From a virus (taxonomy: Duplodnaviria > Heunggongvirae > Uroviricota > Caudoviricetes): 12,837 nucleotides of DNA. Shown one piece after another: positions 1-12,837 of the stretch. The stretch is from the IMG/VR virus record IMGVR_UViG_643692022_000004; one strand, 5' to 3'. The position numbers were made by a program, and so were the translations under genes. Below the pieces are notes generated by a model that worked only from the letters and a program-made list of their open reading frames with translations, ran no database searches and was not told the origin of the DNA. The stretch's first letter is position 1, and each line of letters begins with the position of its first letter.

Positions 1-243
1 TCACTCACTTACCAGCCAGAATTCCGCTTCTTCGAACATTTCCTGAACGACGGCACTTATCCGCTCTTTCTCATGTTTGCTGGCATCCGTGTTAATCGCT
101 GGCAGTGTCATCATCGGTTTAACCCGGACATCTGCATCCGGGAAGATCCGGTGCACTCTCTTACTCAGTTCATCTAAAATGATCTCTTTTGCACCAGGCA
201 GACCATCAAAATTCCTTTTGTCATAAACGAGTTCCACGAACAT
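1..243 (-). CDS. DinI-family DNA-damage-inducible protein (80 aa)
   Basis: Complete minus-strand ORF: ATG at 243-241, TGA at 3-1, AAGAGG-like RBS about 7 nt upstream. The C-terminal half (ELSKRVHRIFPDADVRV...KERISAVVQEMFEEAEFWLVSE) resembles E. coli DinI as I recall it (…ELSRRIQYAFPD…KQRISEILQETWESADDWFVSE). Two LexA-box-like palindromes lie immediately upstream. Confidence 0.7.
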   Translation of the reverse strand: MFVELVYDKRNFDGLPGAKEIILDELSKRVHRIFPDADVRVKPMMTLPAINTDASKHEKERISAVVQEMFEEAEFWLVSE

Positions 244-260
244 TGCGCATTGCCTCTTAA

Positions 261-300
261 CTGGACGTATATACAGTTTTTATACTGTATTTCTAACCAG
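261..300. promoter_or_regulatory. Tandem LexA (SOS) operator-like boxes upstream of the DinI-like gene
   Basis: CTGgacgtatataCAG (261-276) and CTGTatttctaaCCAG (285-300) both fit CTG-N10-CAG / CTGT-N8-ACAG. The second, in context TACTGTATTTCTAACCAGTA, closely resembles the dinI SOS box as I recall it. They sit 18-57 bp upstream of the ATG at 243. Confidence 0.6.
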
Positions 301-459
301 TATTCAAGATATGGCACTTCGCATCTACTATTCAGATGCACGCCTACATCATCAATGATGTGAGAACGGTAGAGCTTGAGGATTATATTTTTGTACGCAT
401 AAGCAGACTGAATTCGCAATACGCGGGTTCAGATTCTTGATAAATTGCGCATTGTTCCT

Positions 460-557
460 GCCGGATGCGGGGTAAATGTTTTGTTCGTTCTGAAATGTCA
501 ATAAAATACAATGCATTTCAGGAGGTTAGTCGGCCTGATAAGCGTAGCGCATCAGGC
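460..557. repeat. REP-like extragenic palindromic sequences
   Basis: GCCGGATGCGG (460-470) and the imperfect palindrome GGCCTGATAAGCGTAGCGCATCAGGC (532-557) match the enterobacterial REP/PU motif family from memory; no convincing ORF covers them. Confidence 0.45.
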
Positions 558-963
558 AATTTGCATTTGTCATCAGTCGCAATCCGCATTACATGGTTCT
601 TTATTGTCACTACTCAAATTCGCTGTCGCCATTTTGCCGCCACAGCCCAAGAAAAAGGCTACGCTTTCGCGTATCCATTTGATTTATTTTATGAGTGCGA
701 AATATCGTCAGCACACACTTCTATGGCTCTGTCTTTCTTTACATTCCACCTACGCTCGGCAACTAACAGAAAGTGTTGGTATTGGCCTCATGGGAATTTC
801 TCGCTGTTTTTTCTGATGTTCCAGAGGAGCGTCATTGCCATGAGTCGTCTCCATGCTTTTAGACCCAATGAAAACGATGGTTCTTTTCGTTGGGCCTGAC
901 AATGGGCTTAAAAAGTTCAGAATAAATTAGTTTGCTTGAGATTTTGCGAGACAAATTGAAGGC

Positions 964-984
964 ACAAAAAAGCCCGCAGGGCTT
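964..984 (-). terminator. Intrinsic-terminator-like hairpin, probable displaced ancestral ssrA terminator
   Basis: On the minus strand AGCCC-tgc-GGGCT is followed by a 6-T run (966-971). It is a near-identical copy of the hairpin just downstream of the ssrA 3' end at 12368-12386. Confidence 0.4.
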
Positions 985-1044
985 GCGCCATGCAGGCTTT
1001 CAGGACTTCATCGGATGGCTCTGGTAATCACCGATGGAGAATTT

Positions 1045-1066
1045 TGGTGGGCTGGCGGAGTTTGAA
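1045..1066. other. Distal attachment site (attL-like): degenerate direct repeat of the ssrA 3' end
   Basis: tggtgggctggcggagtttgaa versus the ssrA 3' terminus tggtggagctggcgggagttgaacc at 12436-12460 (shared blocks tggtgg / gctggcgg / agtt / gaa), in the same orientation and again adjacent to a copy of the terminator hairpin. Confidence 0.45.
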
Positions 1067-1119
1067 TAAATATTGTATTGCTTTGATTTTTAATGATTTT
1101 ATTTAATTCAGTTTTTATG

Positions 1120-1141
1120 CGTATACCTAATCGTATACCAA
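1120..1141. promoter_or_regulatory. Putative integrase arm-type binding sites (alpha-proximal arm)
   Basis: cgtatacct-aat-cgtataccaa; the same two motifs recur four times, in both orientations, at 12272-12323 next to int and the ssrA core. Confidence 0.35.
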
Positions 1142-1200
1142 TGGCTGTAAGTTAATGTGAAATGAAAGCGTATTTTTATTTGGATTGATGCTATATCGTA

Positions 1201-1500
1201 CAGGAAAAAATTTTTTTTCGAAAGAACTGTTCACACTGTTCACCCTTTGATTTTCTCCTTTTATTTCATAGTGATAGGTGGTGAATAATGGGTGAAGGGT
1301 GAACATTCGATTCTTCACCTCCGGCATTCTGCCGGTGTGACTCATACCGGTGATTAATCCCCCGTACTGAAAATCGCACAGGGAGAAAAAAGTTTTTTTT
1401 GATTTGATTGTTCACACTGTTCACCTTTCATTTTTCTCTTTTAATTTCAGTGTGATAACGGGTGAACATACGGTGAAGGGTGAACAGTGGATTGTTCACC
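1201..1500. repeat. crr-like cis replication region: two ~120-bp direct repeats carrying TGTTCACC-type octamer iterons
   Basis: Unit 1 (~1201-1320) and unit 2 (~1381-1500) each begin with an A-run/T-run and contain tgttcaca, tgttcacc and inverted ggtgaaca copies (e.g. 1228-1244, 1298-1305, 1409-1425, 1461-1468, 1479-1486, 1493-1500). TGTTCACC is the recalled binding octamer of the P4 alpha C-terminal domain. Confidence 0.7.
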
Positions 1501-1518
1501 TTCGGGGAATTCAGGGAT

Positions 1519-1543
1519 AAAAAAAGACCGGCAGATGCCGGTC
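1519..1543 (-). terminator. Rho-independent terminator of the leftward operon, just after alpha
   Basis: On the minus strand a 7-bp stem GACCGGC/GCCGGTC (1526-1532 / 1537-1543) with a 4-nt loop is followed by a 7-T run (1519-1525), 8 nt after the alpha stop codon at 1551-1553. Confidence 0.55.
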
Positions 1544-1550
1544 AGGTGGG

Positions 1551-3884
1551 TCAGGCTGTTGCAGGGTCGTCACATTTTGGCAGCCAGTCGCCGTAGCTTT
1601 CCTCTTTCAGTGTCAGGTTGGTCTGTATCCCCTGTTTGGTATGGCGCTTCTCGTAATTCAGTCCGTATTCCTTCAGCATCACCGGCAGCCCCAGCCCGAA
1701 CATTTTCAGACTGAGTACATTCCGGTAGCCGTTTGCCTCCATGTAGGCCAGATAGGCGTGATAGAGGTATTTACGGTAATTACGCGGGATGATACTGGCG
1801 TTCCCCATATACATGCCGCTGGTCTGCGGCAGGGTTTCCAGATAGCCGATAAAATCAAACGTCGGGTCGGCATCCCGTTTGATGTTCAGTGCCTCGTCTG
1901 AGTTCTGCTGGGACTGAAGCAGTGACCGGGCGAGCATCGGGTCGCTGAACTTCTGCATCAGGTGACGCACGATGACCGCCAGCTCGCGGGTGATTTTGTC
2001 CTTAAGCTGCGGGTCGCGCTCCTGCGGGGCTATCTGTTCCGGGAAGTGAATAATCACCCGCCGGCGTGACACGCCGCCGCTGCGGTCGGTGAAGCGCATC
2101 GGGTTATTGTTCACGGCCAGAATCACCGCCGGGATGTGCGTGGAGTACGCATCCCGGTATTTCGGGTCAACGGACACTGCATCGCCGCCGGTGATGGCCT
2201 TGAGTCCGGCTCCGTCGCCGCTCCATTTTTCCTGGTCCGGCAGGCGTATCAGTGAGAAGCCAGTTAACGCGGCACGTTCACGCGGGGATTCCAGCGTCTC
2301 AATGGTGGCCGACGTGGCGTTATCCTCACCGGCCAGCAGGGTGGCTATTTCGGCCATGATACTTTTGCCGCTGCCGCCGGGACCGGTCACCTCCAGAAAG
2401 AGCTGCCAGTCGTAGCGGTTTGCCAGCACCATAAACAGTGCGGCCAGAATCACGTCGCGTTTTTCCGCACGACCACCGGCAGCACGGTCAAGCCAGCGCC
2501 AGAACGCGGGAGCGTGGGTTTCCAGCGTTTCACCGTCCACCGGCGGGGTGAAATCCACATCACACAGGGTACGCATCCAGTGTGACGGACTGTGCGGGTG
2601 GAACGTACCGTTCTGCGTGTCGAGCACGCCGTTACGAAAGCCAATCAGGCGGCGGGAGGGGGCTTCCTGCTGCGGAATAATCAGCTTCAGGGTGTCCACC
2701 ACGGAGGCCACCTTCCCGGAGGAGAATGGCGCGCGCAGACGCTGAAACAGCCCGGCCACATCCCGGGCAAAGTCCTGTGGCGGCAGCACCTTCCAGACAC
2801 CATTTTCATAGCGGGACAGAAGCTGGCCGTTGGCATCGACCGCGAGCGCCTCGCCGTAATGCTCATAGATACGCATGGCCTTTTCGCTGGTACTCATGGC
2901 GGAAAACTCCGCTTCGCTCATGGTGTCGAACGGGCTTTCAGCCGGTGGCCGGATGGCATCATAAATGGCCTTACGGGTGGCCTCCCCGCCGTACTGCGTG
3001 AAGGCATCATTCCAGTCACCGAAGACCGGCGGCAGGGCAACAACACCTTCACACGCATCTGCGGCTGCGGCGGCTTTTTTCTGGCCGTCACCGCTGAGGT
3101 CACGGTCAGCGGCAAGGACAATCTGACAGGCGGGGTGCTTCTGCCGGGCAAGGCTGGCCAGAGAAAGGAGGTTCACGGAAGAAAGCGCCACCATCACCGT
3201 TTCACCGGTCAGGTGATGCACGGTAAGTGCGGTCGCGTATCCCTCCGCTATCCACAGACGTTTTCCGGCCTGATTCTGTCCTTCAAGGATGTGACAGGTG
3301 CCCCTGACCTGTCCGCCTTTCAGGGTGCGCTTACGGCCGTCAGCACTGATTAACTGAAGGTTAACCAGTTCGCCGCGGTCGTCATACAGTGGCACCACAA
3401 GGTCACCGGCGCGCCAGCTCACGCCACCGGCTCTGTGTGTGCCGGTCAGCATCCGGCATTCCCGGCCGGGAAAGCCCTTGCGGGTCAGGTAGGCGTTACC
3501 GGTTCCGGGACGGGTTTTCGCCATCAGGGTTTGTGCCAGTGCGGCGGCGTTCTTCCGGGCAGCGTCTGTTTCAGCAACAGCGGCGGTCGTCACTGCCGGG
3601 TCAGCCGGGGGCAGGCTGCCGGTCACGGCAGCCACCTTTGCGGCCGCATCGGACGGGGAAACACCAAACACCTTTTCAACCAGTTTCAGGCCGTCACCGG
3701 CACCACACTGATTGCAGTACCAGGTGCCGCGCCCCTCCCTGTCATCAAAACGGAAGCGGTCACTCCCGCCACAGACCGGACAGGGCTGATGACGGTTCTT
3801 CAGCACCTGAATCCCCAGCGCCGGGAGGATACGCGGCCAGTGGCCGAGTGCATGGCTGACGGTGGCGGTTACGTTCATTTTCAT
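1551..3884 (-). CDS. alpha: P4 alpha-type primase-helicase (777 aa)
   Basis: ATG at 3884 with AAGGAG RBS. N-terminal zinc-binding primase motif CPVCGGSDRFRFDDREGRGTWYCNQCG, Walker A VTGPGGSGKS of a D5/SF3-type helicase, and length matching the recalled 777 aa of P4 alpha. Flanked by its cognate octamer iterons. Confidence 0.95.
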   Translation of the reverse strand: MKMNVTATVSHALGHWPRILPALGIQVLKNRHQPCPVCGGSDRFRFDDREGRGTWYCNQCGAGDGLKLVEKVFGVSPSDAAAKVAAVTGSLPPADPAVTTAAVAETDAARKNAAALAQTLMAKTRPGTGNAYLTRKGFPGRECRMLTGTHRAGGVSWRAGDLVVPLYDDRGELVNLQLISADGRKRTLKGGQVRGTCHILEGQNQAGKRLWIAEGYATALTVHHLTGETVMVALSSVNLLSLASLARQKHPACQIVLAADRDLSGDGQKKAAAAADACEGVVALPPVFGDWNDAFTQYGGEATRKAIYDAIRPPAESPFDTMSEAEFSAMSTSEKAMRIYEHYGEALAVDANGQLLSRYENGVWKVLPPQDFARDVAGLFQRLRAPFSSGKVASVVDTLKLIIPQQEAPSRRLIGFRNGVLDTQNGTFHPHSPSHWMRTLCDVDFTPPVDGETLETHAPAFWRWLDRAAGGRAEKRDVILAALFMVLANRYDWQLFLEVTGPGGSGKSIMAEIATLLAGEDNATSATIETLESPRERAALTGFSLIRLPDQEKWSGDGAGLKAITGGDAVSVDPKYRDAYSTHIPAVILAVNNNPMRFTDRSGGVSRRRVIIHFPEQIAPQERDPQLKDKITRELAVIVRHLMQKFSDPMLARSLLQSQQNSDEALNIKRDADPTFDFIGYLETLPQTSGMYMGNASIIPRNYRKYLYHAYLAYMEANGYRNVLSLKMFGLGLPVMLKEYGLNYEKRHTKQGIQTNLTLKEESYGDWLPKCDDPATA

Positions 3885-3898
3885 GGTGTTGTTCTCCT

Positions 3899-4219
3899 TC
3901 AGTGCAGTACCGGCGCTTTTATGTGACGGGCACAGAGTTCATCCATCACAACCAGCCCGAGAAAGGACAGCGACGGCGCGGCCTTCAGGGGGCCGGATTC
4001 CATTAAATCTTCCAGCAGGGCACAGGCTATCTGACGCCCTTTTTCCTCACCGTGCTGGTGCAGATAAAAGCCTTCCAGCTCAGCGGCGATGGCCGCCTCC
4101 AGTGACTCAAGGGTGAGATGCGGGTAGCGGTGCTGACGTTCGCACACGGTCAGCCAGGCACAGGCGACAGCGCGACGGTAAAGGGCAGCGCGTAAGACGG
4201 GCGGTAAGGGGGTTTTCAT
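3899..4219 (-). CDS. P4 orf106-like hypothetical protein (106 aa)
   Basis: ORF of the length and position of P4 orf106, between orf151 and alpha; its stop (3899-3901) overlaps the alpha RBS. Function unknown. Confidence 0.7.
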
Positions 4220-4354
4220 TTGTTTTCCTCCCTGTGACAGATGACTGCATTCCGTGCCGGTTGCATTAACTGATAAGGCATATCTGCGTCTCCTGAAGAC
4301 GTGCGTATCCCTGCGCGAATACGCACATTTAATTTTTCGGGTGTCGTTTTTTAA

Positions 4355-4810
4355 TTACAGATAATTGCGGTAACTGTTATCCGGGGTGATTTCCGGGTCA
4401 GGCTCCGTGCGGGGAATTTCCCGCCATTCCCGCGCCACCGGTGCCGCCCGGCTGACCGGAACAGGGTCCTGCGGGTAAATATCCAGATATTTCTCCCGCC
4501 ATTTCTGTAATTCCGGGTCTCCGGCCATTTCTTTCAGTACCGCATGCCGGTTTACGGGGCTGCGTTTAAACAGGTCAGGACGGTCACAGGTAAATTCCCG
4601 CAGAAAACGCCCCAGCGGGATGTCTGTGGTGCGCCCGTCAGCGAGGATACGCACAAGGATACTGAATTTACGGCGGTACGGGTTCCAGACAATGTCCGGG
4701 CAGCGGTACGGCATTTCCCACGGAATACCGTCTTCCAGAATGCCGACCACGGCCACATCGGGAAAACCGGCAGAACGGTAAATCTCACCAGGCTGGGGAA
4801 AATCAAACAT
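4355..4810 (-). CDS. P4 orf151-like hypothetical protein (151 aa)
   Basis: ORF of the length and position of P4 orf151; its ATG (4810-4808) overlaps the epsilon stop (4803-4805), suggesting translational coupling. Confidence 0.7.
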   Translation of the reverse strand: MFDFPQPGEIYRSAGFPDVAVVGILEDGIPWEMPYRCPDIVWNPYRRKFSILVRILADGRTTDIPLGRFLREFTCDRPDLFKRSPVNRHAVLKEMAGDPELQKWREKYLDIYPQDPVPVSRAAPVAREWREIPRTEPDPEITPDNSYRNYL

Positions 4811-5090
4811 GCGTCCTGTCTCCCCGGTCTTTCTGCTGGGCGAGAAAATCGCGGCACAGGCCTTTGGCTTTCAGCTCATTCAGCACAAAATCAATATCTT
4901 CATTCAGGTAGCTGAAAATATGCGGAATGTAGAGCTGATGCAGGCCGGAGAGTTCACGGTGAATCAAATCACCCCCAACAAACTGGGATACGGCGCTGGC
5001 GCGGTTGAGCTTATGGTAAGCCTCAATGCTGAGGTGTTCACGGGCGTCATGACGCGCTGAGACGGTCTGAGGGGCTTTTTTATTACGCAC
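4803..5090 (-). CDS. epsilon: Epsilon-like protein (95 aa; P4 anti-repressor that derepresses the helper prophage)
   Basis: Position immediately downstream of the immunity region and upstream of orf151/alpha, as in P4. The start appears to be GTG (5090-5088) preceded by a G-rich RBS. Identity rests on synteny and size, not on a recalled sequence. Confidence 0.6.
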
Positions 5091-5283
5091 GGGACACCCC
5101 CATCACTGGCAGACGGGCAGCAAGGGAGAGCACATAGTCACGGACAAGGGAACGGCGGGCGCTGCGTTCATCACCGGCGACGGTGCGAAGCATGCAGATA
5201 CGGGGATGACGGTCTGCGCGACGGACAGCCGCAAACACAAAGACAAATTCAGGGTGTGAAGGGGTAAGGGTTGTAGCCATGAT

Positions 5284-5402
5284 GGCAGCCTCCGTTAGAT
5301 AGCAGGTTACGCTATCGCCGGAGTTTCCACGCTCGATGGCGATAGCCCAGACGGGGGTGGAAATACCGGCTCTAACGGATACCGGCCAGCCCGGAGGCTG
5401 CC
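5284..5402 (-). ncRNA. Candidate CI-like immunity RNA (structured RNA in the P4 immunity region)
   Basis: Perfect 11-bp long-range inverted repeat ggcagcctccg (5284-5294) / cggaggctgcc (5392-5402) enclosing a perfect 9-bp hairpin gctatcgcc (5311-5319) / ggcgatagc (5338-5346). The locus lies between vis and epsilon where P4 encodes the CI RNA. Exact ends are uncertain. Confidence 0.3.
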
Positions 5403-5528
5403 CCGCCTGAGCTACCATTGACTCTGCGGCATAATGAGCGGACGCGGGCAGGATGCACGGAGTGCCATCTGCTCGACTGACCACACACCACACCATAATC
5501 TGGCGCTCTGTGGCGTTGATTGCGACAC

Positions 5529-5550
5529 AAAAAAAGACGCATGGCGCGTC
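5529..5550 (-). terminator. Candidate attenuator/terminator hairpin in the leader between the early promoter and the CI-like RNA
   Basis: On the minus strand the stem GACGC/GCGTC (5546-5550 / 5536-5540) with loop GCCAT is followed by a 7-T run (5529-5535). The stem is short, so the call is weak. Confidence 0.35.
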
Positions 5551-5613
5551 ATATGTCGCCGTTAGATTGCTCGGGTTTCCACGCCCGGCTGCCGATTTTG
5601 CGACAGCGGAAAA

Positions 5614-5643
5614 ACTATATCCGCAAATGCCGGAAAAAGGCAA
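5614..5643 (-). promoter_or_regulatory. Candidate sigma70 promoter (PLE-like) downstream of vis
   Basis: On the minus strand TTGCCT (5643-5638), an 18-bp spacer, then TATAGT (5619-5614), directed toward the immunity region and epsilon. Hexamer match by eye only. Confidence 0.25.
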
Positions 5644-5678
5644 GCCAGAAAAAGGGAGTTTTTGCAGAGCGGGCATCA

Positions 5679-5945
5679 TCATGCGTCGTACCCCCGTTTG
5701 CGTCCGGCAATGCGCCCGGCCATCCATGCGGTGACTTCAGAGTGCAGCCAGGCCACATTTTTACCGCCAAGACTCACCTGCGGCGGAAATTCCCCCTTAC
5801 GGATGAGTTCATAGATGGTCGAGCGTGACAGGCCGCACAGGTGCATCACTTCCGGAAGACGTAAAAAACGCTCCTGTGTGATGTCCGGCAGCGGCATCAG
5901 TGGCGTCACAGGGGCGGGAGACGGGGAAGAAAAAACAGCTTGCAT
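5679..5945 (-). CDS. vis: Vis-like excisionase/transcriptional regulator (88 aa; AlpA/Xis-type helix-turn-helix)
   Basis: 88-aa ORF with a GAGG RBS. Contains the AlpA/Vis-type motif [45 protein letters not shown]. Same size and position as P4 orf88 (vis) between the late promoter region and the immunity region. Confidence 0.8.
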
Positions 5946-6090
5946 CGGGCTACCTCGTTAATGTCCATACAGCACCGGATAAGTCCGTCCGGCTTCGGGT
6001 AGCGCTTTATTTTGTGAATATTTTCAGCAGACGCAACAGGGGGGATTTGTTCCGGCAGCCTTACAATGCTTGTGTATTTTTTGTTCATCT

Positions 6091-6120
6091 CCACTTAAAG
6101 TCATTTAAAGCCACTTAAAG
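6091..6120. promoter_or_regulatory. Three phased 10-bp direct repeats upstream of vis (candidate Vis/PLL operator)
   Basis: ccacttaaag / tcatttaaag / ccacttaaag are exactly contiguous with 10-bp periodicity, about 150 bp upstream of the vis start codon. Confidence 0.3.
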
Positions 6121-6224
6121 CAATTCGTAATTTTTATAGTGAAATACAAATCGTTTTTTCTTATTCATTCCCGGCGAATTAATAAAAACAAACAGTAATA
6201 AACAGCACAAAAAGCCCATCAACG

Positions 6225-6328
6225 GGTGAACAGTGGTGAACAGACGGTGAACAGTCATTACTGCGATTGTTCACCCTTTAACTTACTGTATTACTTATCT
6301 TTTTTCTTATGGTGAACAGAGGTGAACA
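6225..6328. repeat. ori-like replication origin: cluster of six GGTGAACA/TGTTCACC octamer iterons
   Basis: ggtgaaca at 6225-6232, 6235-6242, 6246-6253, 6311-6318, 6321-6328 and tgttcacc at 6268-6275, followed by an A/T-rich stretch (6331-6350). Same octamer as in crr, and located between vis and sid as in P4. Confidence 0.65.
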
Positions 6329-6408
6329 GTAAAATATAAAAAAAATAAACAGTAAGCCGTTTTTTCCAGCGACCTTTTCCTGGCTTGCCGGTGTGAGGAT
6401 GAGTCTCC

Positions 6409-6426
6409 TGTGTCAGGGCTGGCACA
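6409..6426 (+). promoter_or_regulatory. Psid-type late promoter activator site (TGT-N12-ACA dyad for Delta/Ogr-family activators)
   Basis: TGTgtcagggctggcACA, centred roughly 80 bp upstream of the sid ATG, consistent with the recalled P2/P4 late-promoter architecture (dyad centred near -55). Confidence 0.5.
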
Positions 6427-6498
6427 TCTGCAATGCGTCGTGTTGTTGTCCGGTGTACGTCACAATTTTCTCAACCTGAAGTGACGAGGAGCCGGAAA

Positions 6499-7233
6499 AT
6501 GTCTGACAACACCATCCCTGAATATCTGCAACCCGCACTGGCACAACTGGAAAAGGCCAGAGCCGCCCACCTTGAGAACGCCCGACTGATGGATGAGACC
6601 GTCACGGCCATTGAACGGGCAGAGCAGGAAAAAAATGCGCTGGCGCAGGCCGACGGAAACGACGCTGACGACTGGCGCACGGCCTTTCGTGCAGCCGGTG
6701 GTGTCCTGAGCGACGAGCTGAAACAGCGCCACATTGAGCGCGTGGCACGCCGGGAGCTGGTACAGGAATATGACAATCTGGCCGTGGTGCTGAATTTCGA
6801 ACGTGAACGCCTGAAAGGGGCGTGTGACAGCACGGCCACCGCCTACCGGAAGGCACATCATCACCTTCTGAGTCTGTATGCAGAGCATGAGCTGGAACAC
6901 GCCCTGAATGAAACCTGTGAGGCGCTTGTCCGGGCAATGCATCTGAGCATTCTGGTACAGGAAAATCCGCTCGCCAACACCACCGGCCATCAGGGCTACG
7001 TCGCACCGGAAAAGGCTGTCATGCAGCAGGTGAAATCATCGCTGGAACAGAAAATTAAACAGATGCAAATCAGCCTCACCGGCGAGCCGGTTCTCCGGCT
7101 GACCGGACTGTCAGCGGCAACACTTCCTCACATGGATTATGAGGTGGCAGGCACACCGGCACAGCGCAAGGTGTGGCAGGACAAAATAGACCAGCAGGGA
7201 GCAGTGCTTAAGGCCAGAGGACTGCTGTCATGA
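6499..7233 (+). CDS. sid: Sid-like capsid size determination (external scaffold) protein (244 aa)
   Basis: ATG at 6499 preceded by AGGAG (6486-6490); the track ORF begins 66 nt further upstream but lacks an RBS. The product starts MSDNTIPEYL and is 244 aa, the recalled length of P4 Sid. First gene of the sid-delta-psu operon. Confidence 0.85.
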   Translation: MSDNTIPEYLQPALAQLEKARAAHLENARLMDETVTAIERAEQEKNALAQADGNDADDWRTAFRAAGGVLSDELKQRHIERVARRELVQEYDNLAVVLNFERERLKGACDSTATAYRKAHHHLLSLYAEHELEHALNETCEALVRAMHLSILVQENPLANTTGHQGYVAPEKAVMQQVKSSLEQKIKQMQISLTGEPVLRLTGLSAATLPHMDYEVAGTPAQRKVWQDKIDQQGAVLKARGLLS

Positions 7234-7730
7234 TTTACTGCCCGTCGTGTGGACATGTTGCTCACACCCGCCGCGCACATTTCATGGACGATGGCACCAA
7301 GATAATGATTGCACAGTGCCGGAATATTTATTGCTCTGCGACATTTGAAGCGAGTGAAAGCTTTTTCTCTGACAGTAAAGATTCAGGAATGGAATACATT
7401 TCAGGCAAACAGAGATACCGCGATTCACTGACGTCAGCCTCCGGCAGTATGAAACGCCCGAAAAGAATGCTTGTTACCGGATATTGTTGTCGGAGATGTA
7501 AAGGCCTTGCACTGTCAAGAACATCGCGGCGTCTGTCTCAGGAAGTCACCGAGCGTTTTTATGTGTGCACGGATCCGGGCTGTGGTCTGGTGTTTAAAAC
7601 GCTTCAGACCATCAACCGCTTCATTGTCCGCCCGGTCACGCCGGACGAACTGGCAGAAATCCTGCATGAAAAACAGGAACTGCCGCCAGTACGCTTAAAA
7701 ACACAATCATATTCGCTGCGTCTGGAATGA
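7230..7730 (+). CDS. delta: Delta-like late transcriptional activator (166 aa, tandem Ogr-type zinc-finger domains)
   Basis: Start overlaps the sid stop (ATGA at 7230-7233). Two Cys4 modules: CPSCGH...CRNIYC and CRRCKG...CTDPGC. Length equals the recalled 166 aa of P4 Delta. Confidence 0.9.
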   Translation: MIYCPSCGHVAHTRRAHFMDDGTKIMIAQCRNIYCSATFEASESFFSDSKDSGMEYISGKQRYRDSLTSASGSMKRPKRMLVTGYCCRRCKGLALSRTSRRLSQEVTERFYVCTDPGCGLVFKTLQTINRFIVRPVTPDELAEILHEKQELPPVRLKTQSYSLRLE

Positions 7731-7803
7731 GGGCTGCCGGTTAACACCGGCCGTCGCCGCACACCGTATTTTTATTCTTCACCATGATGAGAAAGAGATA
7801 ACG

Positions 7804-8376
7804 ATGGAAAGCACAGCCTTACAGCAGGCCTTTGACACCTGTCAGAATAACAAAGCAGCATGGCTGCAACGCAAAAATGAGCTGGCTGCGGCCGAACAGG
7901 AATATCTGCGGCTTCTGTCCGGGGAAGGCAGAAACGTCAGTCGCCTGGACGAATTACGCAATATTATCGAAGTCAGAAAATGGCAGGTGAATCAGGCTGC
8001 CGGTCGTTATATTCGTTCGCATGAAGCCGTTCAGCACATCAGCATCCGCGACCGGCTGAATGATTTTATGCAGCAGCACGGCACAGCACTGGCGGCCACA
8101 CTGGCACCGGAGCTGATGGGCTACAGTGAGCTGACGGCCATTGCCCGAAACTGTGCCATACAGCGTGCCACAGATGCCCTGCGTGAAGCCCTTCTGTCCT
8201 GGCTTGCGAAGGGGGAAAAAATTAATTATTCCGCACAGGATAGCGACATTTTAACGACCATCGGATTCAGGCCTGACGCGGCTTCGGTGGATGACAGCCG
8301 TGAAAAATTCACTCCTGCGCAGAACATGATTTTTTCGCGTAAAAGTGCGCAACTGGCATCACATCAGTCTGTGTAA
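7804..8376 (+). CDS. psu: Psu-like polarity suppression / capsid decoration protein (190 aa)
   Basis: 190-aa ORF starting MESTALQQAFDTCQNN, matching my recollection of P4 Psu in sequence start and length; last gene before cos. Confidence 0.9.
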   Translation: MESTALQQAFDTCQNNKAAWLQRKNELAAAEQEYLRLLSGEGRNVSRLDELRNIIEVRKWQVNQAAGRYIRSHEAVQHISIRDRLNDFMQQHGTALAATLAPELMGYSELTAIARNCAIQRATDALREALLSWLAKGEKINYSAQDSDILTTIGFRPDAASVDDSREKFTPAQNMIFSRKSAQLASHQSV

Positions 8377-8411
8377 AACTCCCCGAAAATCCGCCCGTTT
8401 TTACTGAAAAA

Positions 8412-8450
8412 AGCCATGCATCGATAAGGTGCATGGCTTTGCATGCGTTT
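8412..8450 (+). terminator. Candidate terminator of the late operon
   Basis: 8-bp stem AGCCATGC/GCATGGCT (8412-8419 / 8431-8438) followed by a T-containing tail (ttgcatgcgtttt), about 35 nt after the psu stop. Confidence 0.4.
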
Positions 8451-8540
8451 TCCTGCCTCATTTTCTGCAAACCGCGCCATTCCCGGCGCGGTCTGAGCGT
8501 GTCAGTGCAACTGCATTAAAACCGCCCCGCAAAGCGGGCG

Positions 8541-8559
8541 GGCGAGGCGGGGAAAGCAC
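8541..8559. other. cos site (P2/P4-type 19-nt cohesive end)
   Basis: GGCGAGGCGGGGAAAGCAC matches the P2/P4 cohesive-end sequence as I recall it; preceded by a GC-rich hairpin CCGCCCCGC-aaa-GCGGGCGG (8522-8543). Confidence 0.65.
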
Positions 8560-8575
8560 TGCGCGCTTAAGTATA

Positions 8576-11026
8576 TTATTGTTTTGCACTTAAAATATTA
8601 TCAACAACTCGTTTCACACTTTCGAAAGATGACTCTCCTGTTTTAAAAGATTCGTTCATGTCAAAATAACTAGGTTTATTTACAAAACTACTCCAAGCAT
8701 TTGACAGGTAATCTTTGAATGCAATGGAGCGTTTATATCGATCCTCAATATTGAATGACTCACATGAAGCTCGCATATTATTGACTACTTCAGGATTAAA
8801 TATAGGAGTGTCAAATACCATTGCATCAAGATAGGCGAAATCACTTATCCATCGCTTGAGATGATACAAACCAATAGATGTGATTCTAAATTTCGTTGGC
8901 ATTTCTCCTATTAAACCTGTTTCGTCCTCTTCAAATGTAAACCTCTGTGAGGTCTCTATTAATTTTTTGTTTGTCGTTCTTCTTAGCGCATTTTCAGTCT
9001 GCTCAGGAATAAAACCAAGGCTTTGCATTTCATCTATAATGGACTTGGTTAGACAGAATCCATCCCGGTCCTGAAGCTCTTTTTTTTCTGATAATAGCGC
9101 CATTATTAATGGTACTAAAAAGTGTTCTGATATATCTGCAAAAGAAACATCAAAAATATTCATGGCAAGAGATGTGTTTGGATCAAAGTGTGAATATTCA
9201 CCAAGTAAAGCTTGTTTAGAAAATTCATGTACAGGAATTATATATCTACCTTCTTCTTCGTAAGTTCGAATTATTTTATCCGCTTCAACATTTGGGCTGC
9301 CTATAAAACCAGTAATAAAGCTAAGCGCTTGTCTTACATTGCCTCCCGTAATGTTTTCAATAAACTCTCCTAGTGATTTATTTTTTCTTAGAGATTGAAG
9401 CAATACTCTGATAAATGAAGAAAGATTGTCTATATGGATTCTAACAAATTCGGCATGTTCAAGAGGTATCTTTCCTTCAGACATTTCGAGAGCAAACTGA
9501 AGTCGTTTATCAAGAACTTGATCTATCCTTGGTGGTGCAATTGTAAAGACCTTGTGGGGATAAGCAGTTAATGCACCTGATGCTTTTGATTTAAAGAATG
9601 TCTGAGGTCTGACAGATATAAATACTAAAGCATTCCAATCTTTTGCTAACTCCTGAGAAATAACAAATGCTCGCTGTTGCGTTTCGAAATCTCGTTGATC
9701 AGCATTATCTAGACAAATAATTACTTGCTTTTTAGTTTGTTTTGATAAATGAGCGATTGAGTTTTTTAAATGTTCATCTTTAGCATCTAATTTTTCCGCC
9801 AACATCTCAAGTTGTTTTTCCTCATATCGTTCTCTATTTGAATCTCGTAAACTCCCCCAGATTCCTTTTGAAAACCTTTGAATATCTCTTGAATATACGC
9901 CTTTAACAAATTTCATTTCGGTTATATCACAGGAGTATTTATTGTCTAGTTGTTGCTCTATCTCATTTAATATAAATTTTTGAAGATTATTAGCTAATGT
10001 TGCTTTAGAGCCTAAATCTATATATAAATAAATTGCCTCTTTAAATTCTTTGAATGCACTTGAATAAATTAAATTTTTTACAAATGACGTTTTACCAACA
10101 CCAACATCACCAATTAATACAATTGGACGCTTTGATAGAGCCTCGGCCATAATACTTGGATCTAAAGTTTGCTCTTTACGATCAGGTTTAACAGAAGTTA
10201 TATGTGGAGATAATTCATTGTCACTAAATAGAGCAGCATATCTGGCTTGAAGCATTTCTTTACTTAGCAAAGCATATTTTGAAAGGGCACCACTTTCGCA
10301 GTAGCATTTTTGGTAAAAAATCTCTTCAATTTCATTGCTTTCAAGAGCATCTTGAATTATTAATTCTGATATTTGTCTTAATGAGGTCTGTATATCACTA
10401 GCATAGCGTATTTTAGGATACATTGATAAATAGGTTGATAATTTATTTGGAATACCACTTATGTCAGAGGTAAGATACTTAATTAAACGTTGTTCTTTCA
10501 CACCGTAATATGAAAGCATATTCCATGCTAAAGAAAAGTTCCGTAATAAAGAATCCAAACTGTCAAAAACTAAAGCTTTTCCCTCTAAAGGCGAACAGCC
10601 ATTTTGAGTGCTTGCAATAAATGATATAAATTGATGTCCATTAGTGGCTATTGCAATTGGTGTTCCTCGTGATGAACAATATTTTTGTACCTGTATAATT
10701 GCGTCTTTTAAATCGTCATTTGATCTTAAGAGAGTTGGTATGTCGATTATGTTCTTATTTGATAAACCTGCTGGTATTTCAAAAGTCCGGCCTTCTCTTT
10801 TCGCTTCAACAATAACTTGCCGTGGCTTTCCTAATTCATAATCTGTAAAAGTATGATCATGATAGTTTTCAACTTCTATTTGATCATCAGGCCAGCTAAG
10901 AACGTCAATAATTATTTTGTTTATTATATGATGCCTAGTCTGGGCTTCATTTCTTATCTTGGCGCTGTCACTATATTCGTTTACTAATTCTCTTAATAAA
11001 TTTTCGGCTTGTATCATTGTAACCAT
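8576..11026 (-). CDS. Candidate anti-phage defence protein: N-terminal PD-(D/E)xK nuclease (HsdR-N/Mrr-like) fused to a P-loop NTPase with a C-terminal domain of unknown function (816 aa)
   Basis: Uninterrupted 816-codon ORF, ATG at 11026 with GGAGAG RBS 7 nt upstream. Residues ~26-76: NEAQTRHHIINKII...IEVE...DYEL...VIVEAKREG, the E/D/ExK pattern of HsdR-N/Mrr-type nucleases. Walker A GDVGVGKTS (~306-314), extended Walker B VIICLDNADQ (~435-444), and GGNVRQAL (~561-568) resembling an AAA+/STAND sensor motif. No SF2 helicase motifs. Sits in the P4 psu/cos-int slot; strongly AT-rich against a GC-rich backbone. Confidence 0.85.
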   Translation of the reverse strand: MVTMIQAENLLRELVNEYSDSAKIRNEAQTRHHIINKIIIDVLSWPDDQIEVENYHDHTFTDYELGKPRQVIVEAKREGRTFEIPAGLSNKNIIDIPTLLRSNDDLKDAIIQVQKYCSSRGTPIAIATNGHQFISFIASTQNGCSPLEGKALVFDSLDSLLRNFSLAWNMLSYYGVKEQRLIKYLTSDISGIPNKLSTYLSMYPKIRYASDIQTSLRQISELIIQDALESNEIEEIFYQKCYCESGALSKYALLSKEMLQARYAALFSDNELSPHITSVKPDRKEQTLDPSIMAEALSKRPIVLIGDVGVGKTSFVKNLIYSSAFKEFKEAIYLYIDLGSKATLANNLQKFILNEIEQQLDNKYSCDITEMKFVKGVYSRDIQRFSKGIWGSLRDSNRERYEEKQLEMLAEKLDAKDEHLKNSIAHLSKQTKKQVIICLDNADQRDFETQQRAFVISQELAKDWNALVFISVRPQTFFKSKASGALTAYPHKVFTIAPPRIDQVLDKRLQFALEMSEGKIPLEHAEFVRIHIDNLSSFIRVLLQSLRKNKSLGEFIENITGGNVRQALSFITGFIGSPNVEADKIIRTYEEEGRYIIPVHEFSKQALLGEYSHFDPNTSLAMNIFDVSFADISEHFLVPLIMALLSEKKELQDRDGFCLTKSIIDEMQSLGFIPEQTENALRRTTNKKLIETSQRFTFEEDETGLIGEMPTKFRITSIGLYHLKRWISDFAYLDAMVFDTPIFNPEVVNNMRASCESFNIEDRYKRSIAFKDYLSNAWSSFVNKPSYFDMNESFKTGESSFESVKRVVDNILSAKQ

Positions 11027-11049
11027 CGAAAACTCTCCAAATGAAAAAA

Positions 11050-12249
11050 TTAAAAGGATAAAGATTTATGAACAAAAGAACTCCACCAGTTCATTAAATT
11101 CTTCCTTTGTTCTAAGTAAGTAGAACGGTTATAAGCTTTTCTGACTTCATTCTTATCGCTATGAGCTAAGGCTGATTCTATTACATCAGCGTTAAATTCG
11201 GCTTCATTCATTGCAGTGCTGGCAATAGAACGTAAACCATGAGCAACGAGTTTTCCACCATATCCTATCCTTTTTAAAGCGGCATTTGCAGTTTGGCTAT
11301 TCATGGGTTTTTGTGGATCATTTCTACTTGGGAAAACATACTCACGATGAGCACTAATAGTTTTCATAACTTCAAGAATATCTAAAGCCTTAGGTGATAA
11401 AGGTACAATATGTTCGCGCTTAGCTTTCATCCTTTCAGCAGGAATTCTCCAGAGTTTTGCATCAAAATCGATCTCCTTCCATTGAGTGCCTGAAGCCTCT
11501 GAAGGGCGCACAAGGGTGAGTAGTTGCCATTCAATCAGACAACGGGTCTGCACAGAAAGATTTGACATAGATAAAGAATACATAAGTTTCGGTAATTCTT
11601 CAGGTCGTAGTGTTGGCATGTTTTTCTTTTTAGGTTTCTCAAATGCCATACCAATACCTGATGCAGGATTAGCGTCAATTAAGCCAGTATTAACGGCATA
11701 AATCATAATTTCATTAATACGTTGTACCAAACGACGAACAGTTTCAAGTGCTCCACGAGCTTTAATTGGTTCTAAGGTTTCAATTAATGTACGAGCTTTT
11801 ATTTTCTGAACAGGAATTTCACCGATAGTAGGGAAAATATCTCTCTCTAAGGAGCGCCATACATCCTTTGCGTAATCAGGTGTTACGTTGTTTCTTTTTA
11901 TGGCAAACCATTTTGAGGCAACGTTTGAAAAAATACTATCTTCCGCAATCTGTTGCTGTACAGTGACTTGCTCACTGTATATCTGTGGATCAATACCTCG
12001 GGCCAGCAAGGAAAGATACTCAGCACGAGTGTTTCTGGCTTCAGCCAGAGAAAGGGCAGGGAAAGACCCTAAACCAATCATGGTTCGTTGTTTTGTTACT
12101 GGTTTCTGGTATCGGAAACGCCACAGCTTCCTACCGTTCGTTTTTACGAGTAGAAAAAGTCCATTACCATCATGTAGCGTTAGATCCTTTGCAGTTGCTT
12201 TAGCCCGTGATAGTTCAGTGTTAGTAAGAGGGCGTGTTGTACGTGACAC
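11050..12249 (-). CDS. int: Tyrosine integrase (P4-family, 399 aa), ssrA-specific
   Basis: N-terminus typical of P4-family integrases (...RPLTNTELSRAKA...LHDGNGLFLLVKTNGRKLWRFRY...), C-terminal catalytic region with HGLR and a tyrosine in KAYNRSTY. Apparent GTG start at 12249 with a GAGGT RBS. Directly adjacent to the ssrA 3' end. Confidence 0.9.
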   Translation of the reverse strand: MSRTTRPLTNTELSRAKATAKDLTLHDGNGLFLLVKTNGRKLWRFRYQKPVTKQRTMIGLGSFPALSLAEARNTRAEYLSLLARGIDPQIYSEQVTVQQQIAEDSIFSNVASKWFAIKRNNVTPDYAKDVWRSLERDIFPTIGEIPVQKIKARTLIETLEPIKARGALETVRRLVQRINEIMIYAVNTGLIDANPASGIGMAFEKPKKKNMPTLRPEELPKLMYSLSMSNLSVQTRCLIEWQLLTLVRPSEASGTQWKEIDFDAKLWRIPAERMKAKREHIVPLSPKALDILEVMKTISAHREYVFPSRNDPQKPMNSQTANAALKRIGYGGKLVAHGLRSIASTAMNEAEFNADVIESALAHSDKNEVRKAYNRSTYLEQRKNLMNWWSSFVHKSLSF

Positions 12250-12271
12250 GATTATCCTACCTCAGAGAGAA

Positions 12272-12323
12272 TTGGTATACGCTTTTAGGTATACATCTTA
12301 CCGTATACCTAAACGTATACCAA
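12272..12323. promoter_or_regulatory. Cluster of four arm-type integrase-binding-like repeats between int and the att core
   Basis: ttggtatacg (12272-12281), aggtatac (12287-12294), cgtatacct (12302-12310), cgtataccaa (12314-12323): two motifs in inverted then direct orientation, and the same pair recurs at 1120-1141. Overlaps the expected int promoter. Confidence 0.4.
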
Positions 12324-12367
12324 TAATCACTGGATTTAGCGGGATATTCTCGGACAACTGCGGACAC

Positions 12368-12386
12368 AAAAAAGCCCACAGGGCTT
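12368..12386 (-). terminator. Rho-independent terminator downstream of ssrA, supplied by the element
   Basis: On the minus strand AGCCC-tgt-GGGCT is followed by a 6-T run (12368-12373), about 50 nt beyond the tmRNA 3' CCA end. Confidence 0.5.
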
Positions 12387-12435
12387 GTGCCATGCGGGCT
12401 TTCAGGATTTTTCCGGACATATCCGGAAGAGCAAG

Positions 12436-12798
12436 TGGTGGAGCTGGCGGGAGTTGAACCCGCGTCCGAAATTCCTACATCCTCGGTACTACATGCTTAG
12501 TCAGTCTTTACATTCGCTTGCCAGCTGCGGACGGACACGCCACTAACAAACTAGCCTGATTAAGTTTTAACGCTTCAACCCCAGGCAGGGCTTCCACGCG
12601 ATCTCTTTTGGGTTTGACCTCTCTTGATCCCCGTCCTAAGAGCGGAGGCTAGGGAGAGAGGGCTCTAAGCAGGTTATTAAGCTGCTAAAGCGTAGTTTTC
12701 GTCGTTTGCGACTATTTTTTGCGGCTTTTTACGAGGCCAACCGCCCCTCGGCATGCACCTTGGGTTTCGCAAATCCCGTCGAATCCAGAATCAGCCCC
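12436..12798 (-). ncRNA. ssrA: tmRNA (transfer-messenger RNA)
   Basis: Reverse complement begins GGGGCTGATTCTGGATTCGACGGG and ends ...GGTTCAACTCCCGCCAGCTCCACCA; contains the tag reading frame GCAAACGACGAAAACTACGCTTTAGCAGCTTAA (ANDENYALAA). 363 nt, matching E. coli ssrA as recalled. Confidence 0.95.
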
Positions 12799-12837
12799 AA
12801 TGTGTAACAGTAAGTATACCAGATTTATGAGCGCCAT

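Follow-up and report, generated by a model that had tools for sequence, protein, structure and literature searches.

The window analysed here is the whole 12,837-nucleotide (nt) stretch of the Caudoviricetes sequence IMGVR_UViG_643692022_000004 from IMG/VR. On its minus strand, between an AlpA/Vis-like gene and the epsilon gene (Pfam Derepression family), lies a region that is very probably the RNA-based immunity switch of an Escherichia coli P4-like satellite prophage by ssrA and that would work like the switch of phage P4. Switches of the P4 kind consist of a small antisense RNA, called CI or C4, plus two target sites. The mechanism is textbook P4/P1 biology and this kind of system is already known, so that our finding mainly confirms the recognition of P4-type immunity from raw sequence; the allele carried by the window is probably uncharacterised and heteroimmune to P4. 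The following features, given from the promoter to the downstream gene, make up the region:

5614-5643, minus strand: predicted constitutive PLE-like promoter, with the -35 hexamer TTGCCT (5643 to 5638), an 18-nt spacer and the -10 hexamer TATAGT (5619 to 5614).
5530-5607, minus strand: IsrK-like leader RNA with seqA, consisting of hairpin 1, hairpin 2 with a1 in its loop, b1 and then t1.
5576-5582, minus strand: box a1 of seqA, RNA GUGGAAA, in the loop of hairpin 2, complement of a'.
5559-5566, minus strand: box b1 of seqA, RNA UCUAACGG, complement of b'.
5529-5550, minus strand: predicted intrinsic terminator t1, GACGCGCCAUGCGUC (5550 to 5536) followed by U7.
5335-5422, minus strand: CI RNA gene with seqB inside it, full-length match to the Rfam C4 model (RF01695), 76.2 bits (gathering score 45).
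5371-5379, minus strand: box b' of seqB, RNA UCCGUUAGA, carried by the hairpin II loop of CI.
5357-5363, minus strand: box a' of seqB, RNA UUUCCAC, in a single-stranded linker of CI.
5311-5346, minus strand: seqC hairpin, a perfect inverted repeat with 9-bp arms.
5324-5330, minus strand: box a2 of seqC, RNA GUGGAAA, in the loop of the 9-bp hairpin.
5291-5299, minus strand: box b2 of seqC, RNA UCUAACGGA.
5284-5294, minus strand: 3' arm of an 11-bp stem in the region of the kil ribosome-binding site (RBS), CGGAGGCUGCC, with its partner at 5392-5402.
5278-5293, minus strand: kil translation-initiation region, with the Shine-Dalgarno (SD) sequence GGAGG (5293 to 5289), an 8-nt spacer and ATG (5280 to 5278).
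5083-5280, minus strand: kil, 65 amino acids (aa), Icd-like cell-division inhibitor, NCBIfam phage_ICD_like with 76.1 bits against a cut-off of 25.
5083-5727, minus strand: eta open reading frame (ORF), in the frame of kil, 214 aa (199 aa in the RefSeq version), Pfam Phage_ASH with 99.8 bits.

Homology and synteny place the P4 CI RNA/seqA-seqB-seqC system between vis (ORF88) and epsilon. Window positions 5080-5960 are colinear with positions 8165-9045 of phage P4 over 881 bases at 95.5% identity, the order and spacing of the elements are identical in both throughout the immunity region, and the CI homologue and the seq sites fall where the initial annotation, made from the letters of the DNA, had suspected an immunity region and had proposed an alignment with P4. 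P4 has the same promoter, terminator, CI scaffold, kil start and eta frame (promoter and t1 identical or near-identical in sequence), and vis, epsilon, orf151 and alpha flank the region as they do in P4. Besides the C4 family, the Rfam family isrK (RF01394) was matched over its full model at 5530-5607 on the minus strand (72.5 bits; gathering score 50). A relaxed search additionally returned c4-a1b1, described by Rfam as 'a1, b1 targets of C4 antisense RNA', at 5568-5620 with 45.8 bits (E = 2e-10), which is 0.9 bit short of the gathering threshold of 46.7 bits. The IsrK-like and C4-like RNAs are the seqA and CI RNA of the P4 literature (PMC3632133; PMC4825925). The identity to P4, these RNA families and the covariation of the boxes described below together support the pairing of a CI RNA with repeated seq sites that had been suggested for the locus.

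All coordinates and sequences given in the initial annotation are exact, and its repeats were recovered independently by a repeat search and exceed chance. The box TTTCCACGC occurs in the window only at 5324 and 5576 (0.17 copies expected; two copies were reached in 3 of 200 shuffles), in each case preceded by CGTTAGAT, and the 9-mer CCGTTAGAT occurs only at 5292 and 5559 (0.04 expected; none of 200 shuffles reached two). On the minus strand, the two TTTCCACGC copies are the a-boxes of seqC and seqA, and GGTGGAAA at 5356-5363, which had been noted as partially complementary, corresponds to seqB. Overlooked at the time was the complementary partner of the CGTTAGAT boxes, TCTAACGG(A) at 5371-5379, which lies in a hairpin loop. 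Box a' is complementary to a1 and a2, and b' to b1 and b2, through exact matches of 7 nt and 8-9 nt, respectively. Both targets read 5'-a-b-3' and CI reads 5'-b'-a'-3', an order that fits one antiparallel bipartite duplex.

For an analysis of covariation, P4-like loci were collected from IMG/VR by means of two anchors, the CI scaffold and the leader core, which gave approximately 160 loci with the leader core, 121 of them unique. Within a set of 42 unique loci seqA and seqB are 98.7% paired, compared with 41-53% in controls slid by 1-3 columns, with double compensatory changes at 9 of 15 pairs (146 cells), and seqB and seqC are 99.5% paired with compensatory changes at 8 of 15 pairs. Across the 121 unique loci, 99.9% of the a1:a' cells are paired (3 of 7 positions compensatory), as are 98.9% for b1:b' (6 of 8 positions) and 100% for a':a2 (3 of 7 positions); the corresponding values for b':b2 are 97% (97-99% over the two sets) and 5 of 8 positions. 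The covariation between the boxes is very strong and is evidence of selection on the pairings. A scan of contigs with the CI pattern yielded 27 matches, mostly chance occurrences in GC-rich genomes, and filtering these for the leader core left five true loci, two in Erwinia, one in Pantoea and two on contigs of metagenome-assembled genomes.

The fold of CI is a cloverleaf composed of an outer stem of 16-17 bp, hairpin I (CAGCC-UCCG-GGCUG) and hairpin II, with a minimum free energy of -48.1 kcal/mol (z = -4.4). In the 121 unique loci the outer stem is 100% paired, and 6 of its 17 positions show compensatory changes. The mature RNA probably extends from about 5416 to 5338, by homology with the P4 CI RNA, which is 79 nt long. 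Processing of the P4 CI RNA involves RNase P and PNPase.

Upstream of CI there is one consensus match each for a promoter (upstream of seqA) and a terminator (between seqA and cI), as judged from sequence. The PLE-like promoter is the sole sigma-70-like site in 5000-6200 and is identical to P4 where record X02534 marks 'consensus -10 sequence'. The hairpin with a 7-T run at 5529-5550, already pointed out in the initial annotation, is the predicted terminator of the leader; it is the sole terminator-like site in the same interval and makes up the 3'-terminal part of the Rfam isrK match. Its stem covaries, 17 of 121 loci having C-G in place of G-C, its U-run is conserved, and a spacer of about 108 nt separates it from CI. 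Three further observations concern this part of the region. A 12-nt direct repeat around the PLE -35 hexamer (GCCGGAAAAAGG and GCCAGAAAAAGG, window 5629-5640 and 5644-5655) is conserved in P4 and may be a protein-binding site. The motif TTGCGACA occurs twice, once on each side of the leader (window 5520-5527 and 5598-5605). In the fold of the full leader, GGCGACAU (5560 to 5553) pairs with GUGUCGC just past the U-run and thereby encloses t1; this modelled helix may be an alternative structure that bears on read-through transcripts.

Downstream of CI, seqC exposes a2 in the loop of the 9-bp hairpin, whose arms, 5311-5319 (GCTATCGCC) and 5338-5346, are perfect reverse complements of each other. 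This hairpin is 99.1% paired in the 121 loci, with 4 of 9 positions compensatory. The CI outer stem uses the 5' arm of this hairpin (5346 to 5338) as its own 3' arm, so that the two folds are mutually exclusive. The last three bases of b2, GGA, are the first three of the kil SD sequence GGAGG. As the first translated gene downstream of PLE, kil is preceded by GGAGG-N8-ATG, and this initiation region has been conserved both among P4-like loci and in the phages D6, RCS47 and phiP27.

The differences between the window and P4 are concentrated in the recognition boxes. In 440 aligned bases 29 positions differ, of which 18 are among the 45 box positions and 11 among the 395 positions outside (Fisher p = 7e-13). 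All 18 box differences are mutually compensating, and all six boxes are affected, with two changed bases per a-box and four per b-box. From P4 to the window, the a-boxes change from GUGAGAA to GUGGAAA at a1 and a2 and from UUCUCAC to UUUCCAC at a', and the b-boxes from UUCACAGG to UCUAACGG at b1 and b2 and from CCUGUGAA to CCGUUAGA at b'. Cognate box duplexes have energies of -20 to -23 kcal/mol, and crosses between window and P4 boxes -6 to -9 kcal/mol. These are box-level duplexes; a whole-molecule duplex of CI with the seqA or seqC region melts all internal structure. From the 18 compensating box changes together with the weak cross duplexes we infer that the allele has an immunity specificity of its own. 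It and P4 are predicted no longer to recognise each other, and by these energies the allele should be immune to itself and heteroimmune (orthogonal) to P4. With 18 coordinated substitutions on a nearly identical scaffold, the pair presents a clean specificity switch. The phages P1 and P7 are the classical pair differing in immunity via these boxes, and the retronphage phiR73, a relative of P4, reportedly has its own specificity set by seqA/seqB/seqC.

In the family as a whole, three a' alleles were found (UUCUCAC, UUUCCAC and UUCCUAC), and the b' loop cores, which number at least 14, occur with them in many combinations (36 raw combinations); the combination of the window, UUUCCAC with CCGUUAGA, is present in 13 of 160 loci. 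We lean towards the view that P4-like satellites use a modular RNA code, in which a- and b-boxes, each in three co-evolving copies, reassort freely and provide dozens of orthogonal specificities, the one of the window included. Such a two-box code would be a ready source of antisense RNA/target pairs that are predicted to be orthogonal, and it would offer a testable account of how P4-like satellites coexist in, or exclude one another from, one host. Among the matches listed, only two isolate genomes of the sample carry two loci, one with a pair of different types and one with a pair of the same type. The CI RNA is not mentioned in the genomic surveys of P4-like satellites that were searched. 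Some loci deviate from the cognate pattern. Locus L028 (8573-8958) has foreign a1 and b1 boxes and a cognate seqC, and L068 (3689-4074) a foreign b1 and likewise a cognate seqC; these two hybrids may be recombination intermediates in specificity switching. In L156 the b' loop matches neither target, and L027 and L035 have degenerate b boxes.

By analogy with P4, the switch would operate as follows. The constitutive PLE (5643 to 5614, minus strand) would transcribe a leader with, in this order, seqA (a1 in a hairpin loop, then b1), t1, the CI gene, seqC (a2 and b2) and the kil RBS. CI would be excised from the leader transcript as a stable cloverleaf of about 80 nt that presents b' in the hairpin II loop and a' in the linker, and would pair in antiparallel orientation with a1/b1 and a2/b2 on nascent PLE transcripts. 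Pairing at seqA would promote termination at t1. At seqC, the b2 duplex would cover the start of the kil SD sequence and leave kil untranslated; this block of kil translation would permit Rho-dependent termination (timm in P4) of the untranslated kil RNA before epsilon and the alpha replication genes are reached. Transcripts from the upstream late promoter (PLL) would escape, because eta is translated straight through the region. For P4, processing to about 79 nt, t1, timm and the escape of PLL transcripts via eta have reportedly been described. The present analysis contributes to this scheme the homology, the RNA families, the promoter and terminator consensus matches, the covarying base pairs and the sharing of bases between b2 and the SD sequence, and we infer processing, termination and the immunity phenotype from P4 genetics. 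In P4, CI is processed from the leader, and premature termination acts via seqA upstream and seqC downstream (PMC3632133; PMC4825925).

Several points weigh against this interpretation or parts of it. Every functional step is transferred from P4, the prophage may be defective, and the c4-a1b1 match stays slightly below its gathering threshold. The predicted heteroimmunity derives entirely from pairing energies, and since the crossed a-boxes differ by one mismatch and one G-U pair there might be residual cross-reaction. Furthermore, the non-cognate seqA boxes in L028, L068 and L156 indicate that a perfect match at both sites is not obligatory.

The transcript might alternatively regulate itself. 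The initial annotation had described a nested structure in which an 11-bp stem (5284-5294, GGCAGCCTCCG, the perfect reverse complement of 5392-5402) encloses the 9-bp hairpin, and had suggested folding of the minus-strand transcript. Both inverted repeats are indeed perfect, the inner hairpin covaries, and in the unprocessed leader (5607 to 5270 and 5422 to 5270) the nested stem is the minimum-free-energy fold, with the 11-bp stem as its outer helix. If this structure were functional, CI would fold in cis onto seqC and the kil RBS (outer pairing 5402-5392:5294-5284, inner pairing a':a2) and would hide the RBS without any RNA acting in trans. The long cis hairpin reaches -76.3 kcal/mol versus -71.1 kcal/mol for the cloverleaf alternative, and 9-11 of its 11 outer pairs (G-U included) persist in most P4-like loci. 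We nevertheless regard regulation by this fold as unlikely, given that neither the 42 nor the 121 loci contain any compensatory change in the 11-bp stem. Its partner at 5392-5402 comprises the 5' arm and loop of CI hairpin I, and the variants CCGAC/GUCGG and CUGAC/GUCAG, taken from the list of hairpin I variants, covary inside that hairpin but are unmatched at the RBS, where paired runs drop to 3-5 bp. D6, RCS47 and phiP27 keep the RBS sequence GGAGGCUGCCAUNAUGGCUAC and have a quite different hairpin I. Other helices of the cis fold, for instance GCCGG:CCGGC, are broken and uncompensated, the covarying b':b2 pairing is not used in it, and the cloverleaf with its fully paired, covarying outer stem is transcribed first. 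As it has no compensatory changes and disappears with other versions of hairpin I, we conclude that the 11-bp stem is not a conserved helix and that the stable RNA is the cloverleaf at 5335-5422; the stem may have a role specific to the P4 lineage. The stem was also considered as a third pairing module and rejected on the basis of the 42 loci, the 121 loci, the hairpin I variants and five distant phages. A different alternative is that the short leader RNA (5607 to 5530) is the main regulator, which would act in trans to open a read-through long form and activate translation of a downstream small ORF, making the module an activator switch and not an immunity repressor. The isrK score is well over its gathering score, and the Gifsy-1 prophage of Salmonella (IsrK - STnc1160 - orf45 - anrP) has the same arrangement, including a small ORF and an antirepressor, with a leader that matches Rfam isrK as does that of the window. 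In Gifsy-1, IsrK was shown experimentally to act on the long isoform; the mechanism reported is that the short IsrK activates translation of this isoform, with the role of the C4-like RNA left open (PMC4825925). Such action in trans, together with binding to Hfq, is known for Gifsy-1 only (PMC4825925). STnc1160 is a processed C4-like RNA of about 80 nt that arises from read-through of the isrK terminator, and the authors call IsrK a structural homologue of P4 seqA (PMC4825925). Moreover, in a transposon screen the IsrK-like element of P4-like prophages was required in S. Typhi (PMC3632133). Such activation as the main function appears improbable to us all the same, as the leader boxes covary with the CI boxes and not with another site on a long mRNA, and P4, 95.5% identical here, is reported with CI as the trans-acting factor and seqA as its target (PMC3632133; PMC4825925). 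Both roles are compatible, and the short leader RNA could also titrate CI.

The third alternative concerns the protein-coding content of the region. According to the initial annotation there was no credible protein gene between vis and epsilon, which is wrong: the Phage_ASH match covers 5083-5727, and the last 65 codons give an Icd-like match of 76 bits. The eta ORF spans seqA, t1, CI and seqC, and kil constitutes these last 65 codons. This corresponds to P4, in which a kil gene of 65 aa is reportedly nested in eta. In 118 of 119 unique loci the kil frame is open upstream beyond the leader, and in 116 of 119 the leader and kil are spaced by a multiple of three. Indels in the spacer between t1 and CI (window ~5430-5525) of P4-like loci are all multiples of three as well (6, 9, 12 and 39 nt), consistent with translation through the leader in the eta frame. 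Such conservation of the frame indicates that the RNA elements sit inside a reading frame under coding constraint. The region could then be regarded as purely protein-coding (eta, 'Ash' or the old 'cI protein' ORF), with the repeats being due to coding or chance and with no regulatory RNA, and the GenBank and RefSeq records of P4 do keep a 137-aa 'cI gene product / transcriptional repressor'. A purely coding region is extremely improbable in view of boxes that covary as reverse complements, which coding constraint does not produce, of two independent Rfam covariance models matched above threshold and of CI stems with compensatory changes; in addition, the P4 immunity factor is stated to be an RNA (PMC3632133; PMC4825925). 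Coding (eta) and RNA functions evidently coexist, and the embedding of the RNA elements in a conserved frame makes the region a compact case of coding and RNA-pairing constraints on the same bases.

Database records of this stretch name proteins only ('cI gene product / transcriptional repressor', 'Ash', 'Icd-like protein'), which leaves an annotation gap. The P4 records X51522 and NC_001609 still have the 137-aa coding sequence (CDS) over the CI RNA gene (8168-8584), the Pfam 'Ash protein family' is built on the eta ORF, and the RefSeq CDS in the window is labelled 'Icd-like'. The exact 386-nt immunity region is found at 100% identity in many complete E. coli genomes (48 records at >=99%), strains SC467 and O145:H28 RM12761 being examples of carriers of the identical 386 nt. 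Of 5,426 complete E. coli genomes, 1,253 gave matches, at up to 4 places per genome. At the E. coli copies of the exact allele, RefSeq has an 'Icd-like protein' CDS only and no annotated RNA gene, despite the presence of this allele in dozens of complete E. coli genomes.

The same two-box logic is known from the immI region of P1 and P7, where a C4 antisense RNA (a'/b') with the targets a1/b1 and a2/b2 controls icd-ant (RF01695, RF03163), and by covariance model the RNAs belong to a common family. The order a1b1, terminator, C4 and a2b2 overlapping the RBS of an Icd-like gene is shared with the window, and D6 and RCS47, which are P1-like phages, were confirmed to have this order. The P4-like elements differ from P1/P7 in their downstream effector, which is epsilon plus the replication operon instead of Ant, and in that the eta ORF is read through the entire region as well. 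A module of an isrK-like a1b1 element with terminator, C4, a2b2 and an Icd-like gene was found in five phages (L195-L199), namely the P1-like D6 and RCS47, the N15-like PY54 and phiKO2, and phiP27, and an antirepressor gene (ant) is annotated downstream in D6, RCS47 and phiKO2. In all five the isrK-like element lies 25-45 nt upstream of the C4 RNA, followed by icd, whereas t1 and CI are about 108 nt apart in P4-like loci. The occurrence of an isrK-like element before C4 in these five phages means that Rfam 'isrK' is in practice the a1b1-plus-terminator leader of C4 modules generally.

Regarding its genomic context, window positions 1045-12837 match an island of E. coli strain SC467 at 99% identity. 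The left ~1 kb of the window (1-1044) is unmatched in this island, which carries a second integrase gene upstream, so the left junction varies between strains. A 399-aa tyrosine integrase (11050-12249, minus strand; NCBIfam PRK09692, 583 bits) is encoded directly beside a full-length transfer-messenger RNA (tmRNA) gene (12436-12798, minus strand; 295.8 bits), and in the closest genome smpB and ratA follow next after the tmRNA gene. The adjoining integrase and tmRNA genes indicate that the satellite is integrated at ssrA; P4 itself integrates elsewhere. Between psu and the integrase gene, at the position of the P4 defence hotspot, lies an ORF of 816 aa (8576-11026, minus strand). It has no NCBIfam match, weak P-loop matches (AAA_22 with 28.5 bits; NACHT and AAA_16 sub-threshold) and one weak PADLOC match to mad8 (E = 2.5e-4); from its position and these matches, it is a candidate anti-phage cargo gene.

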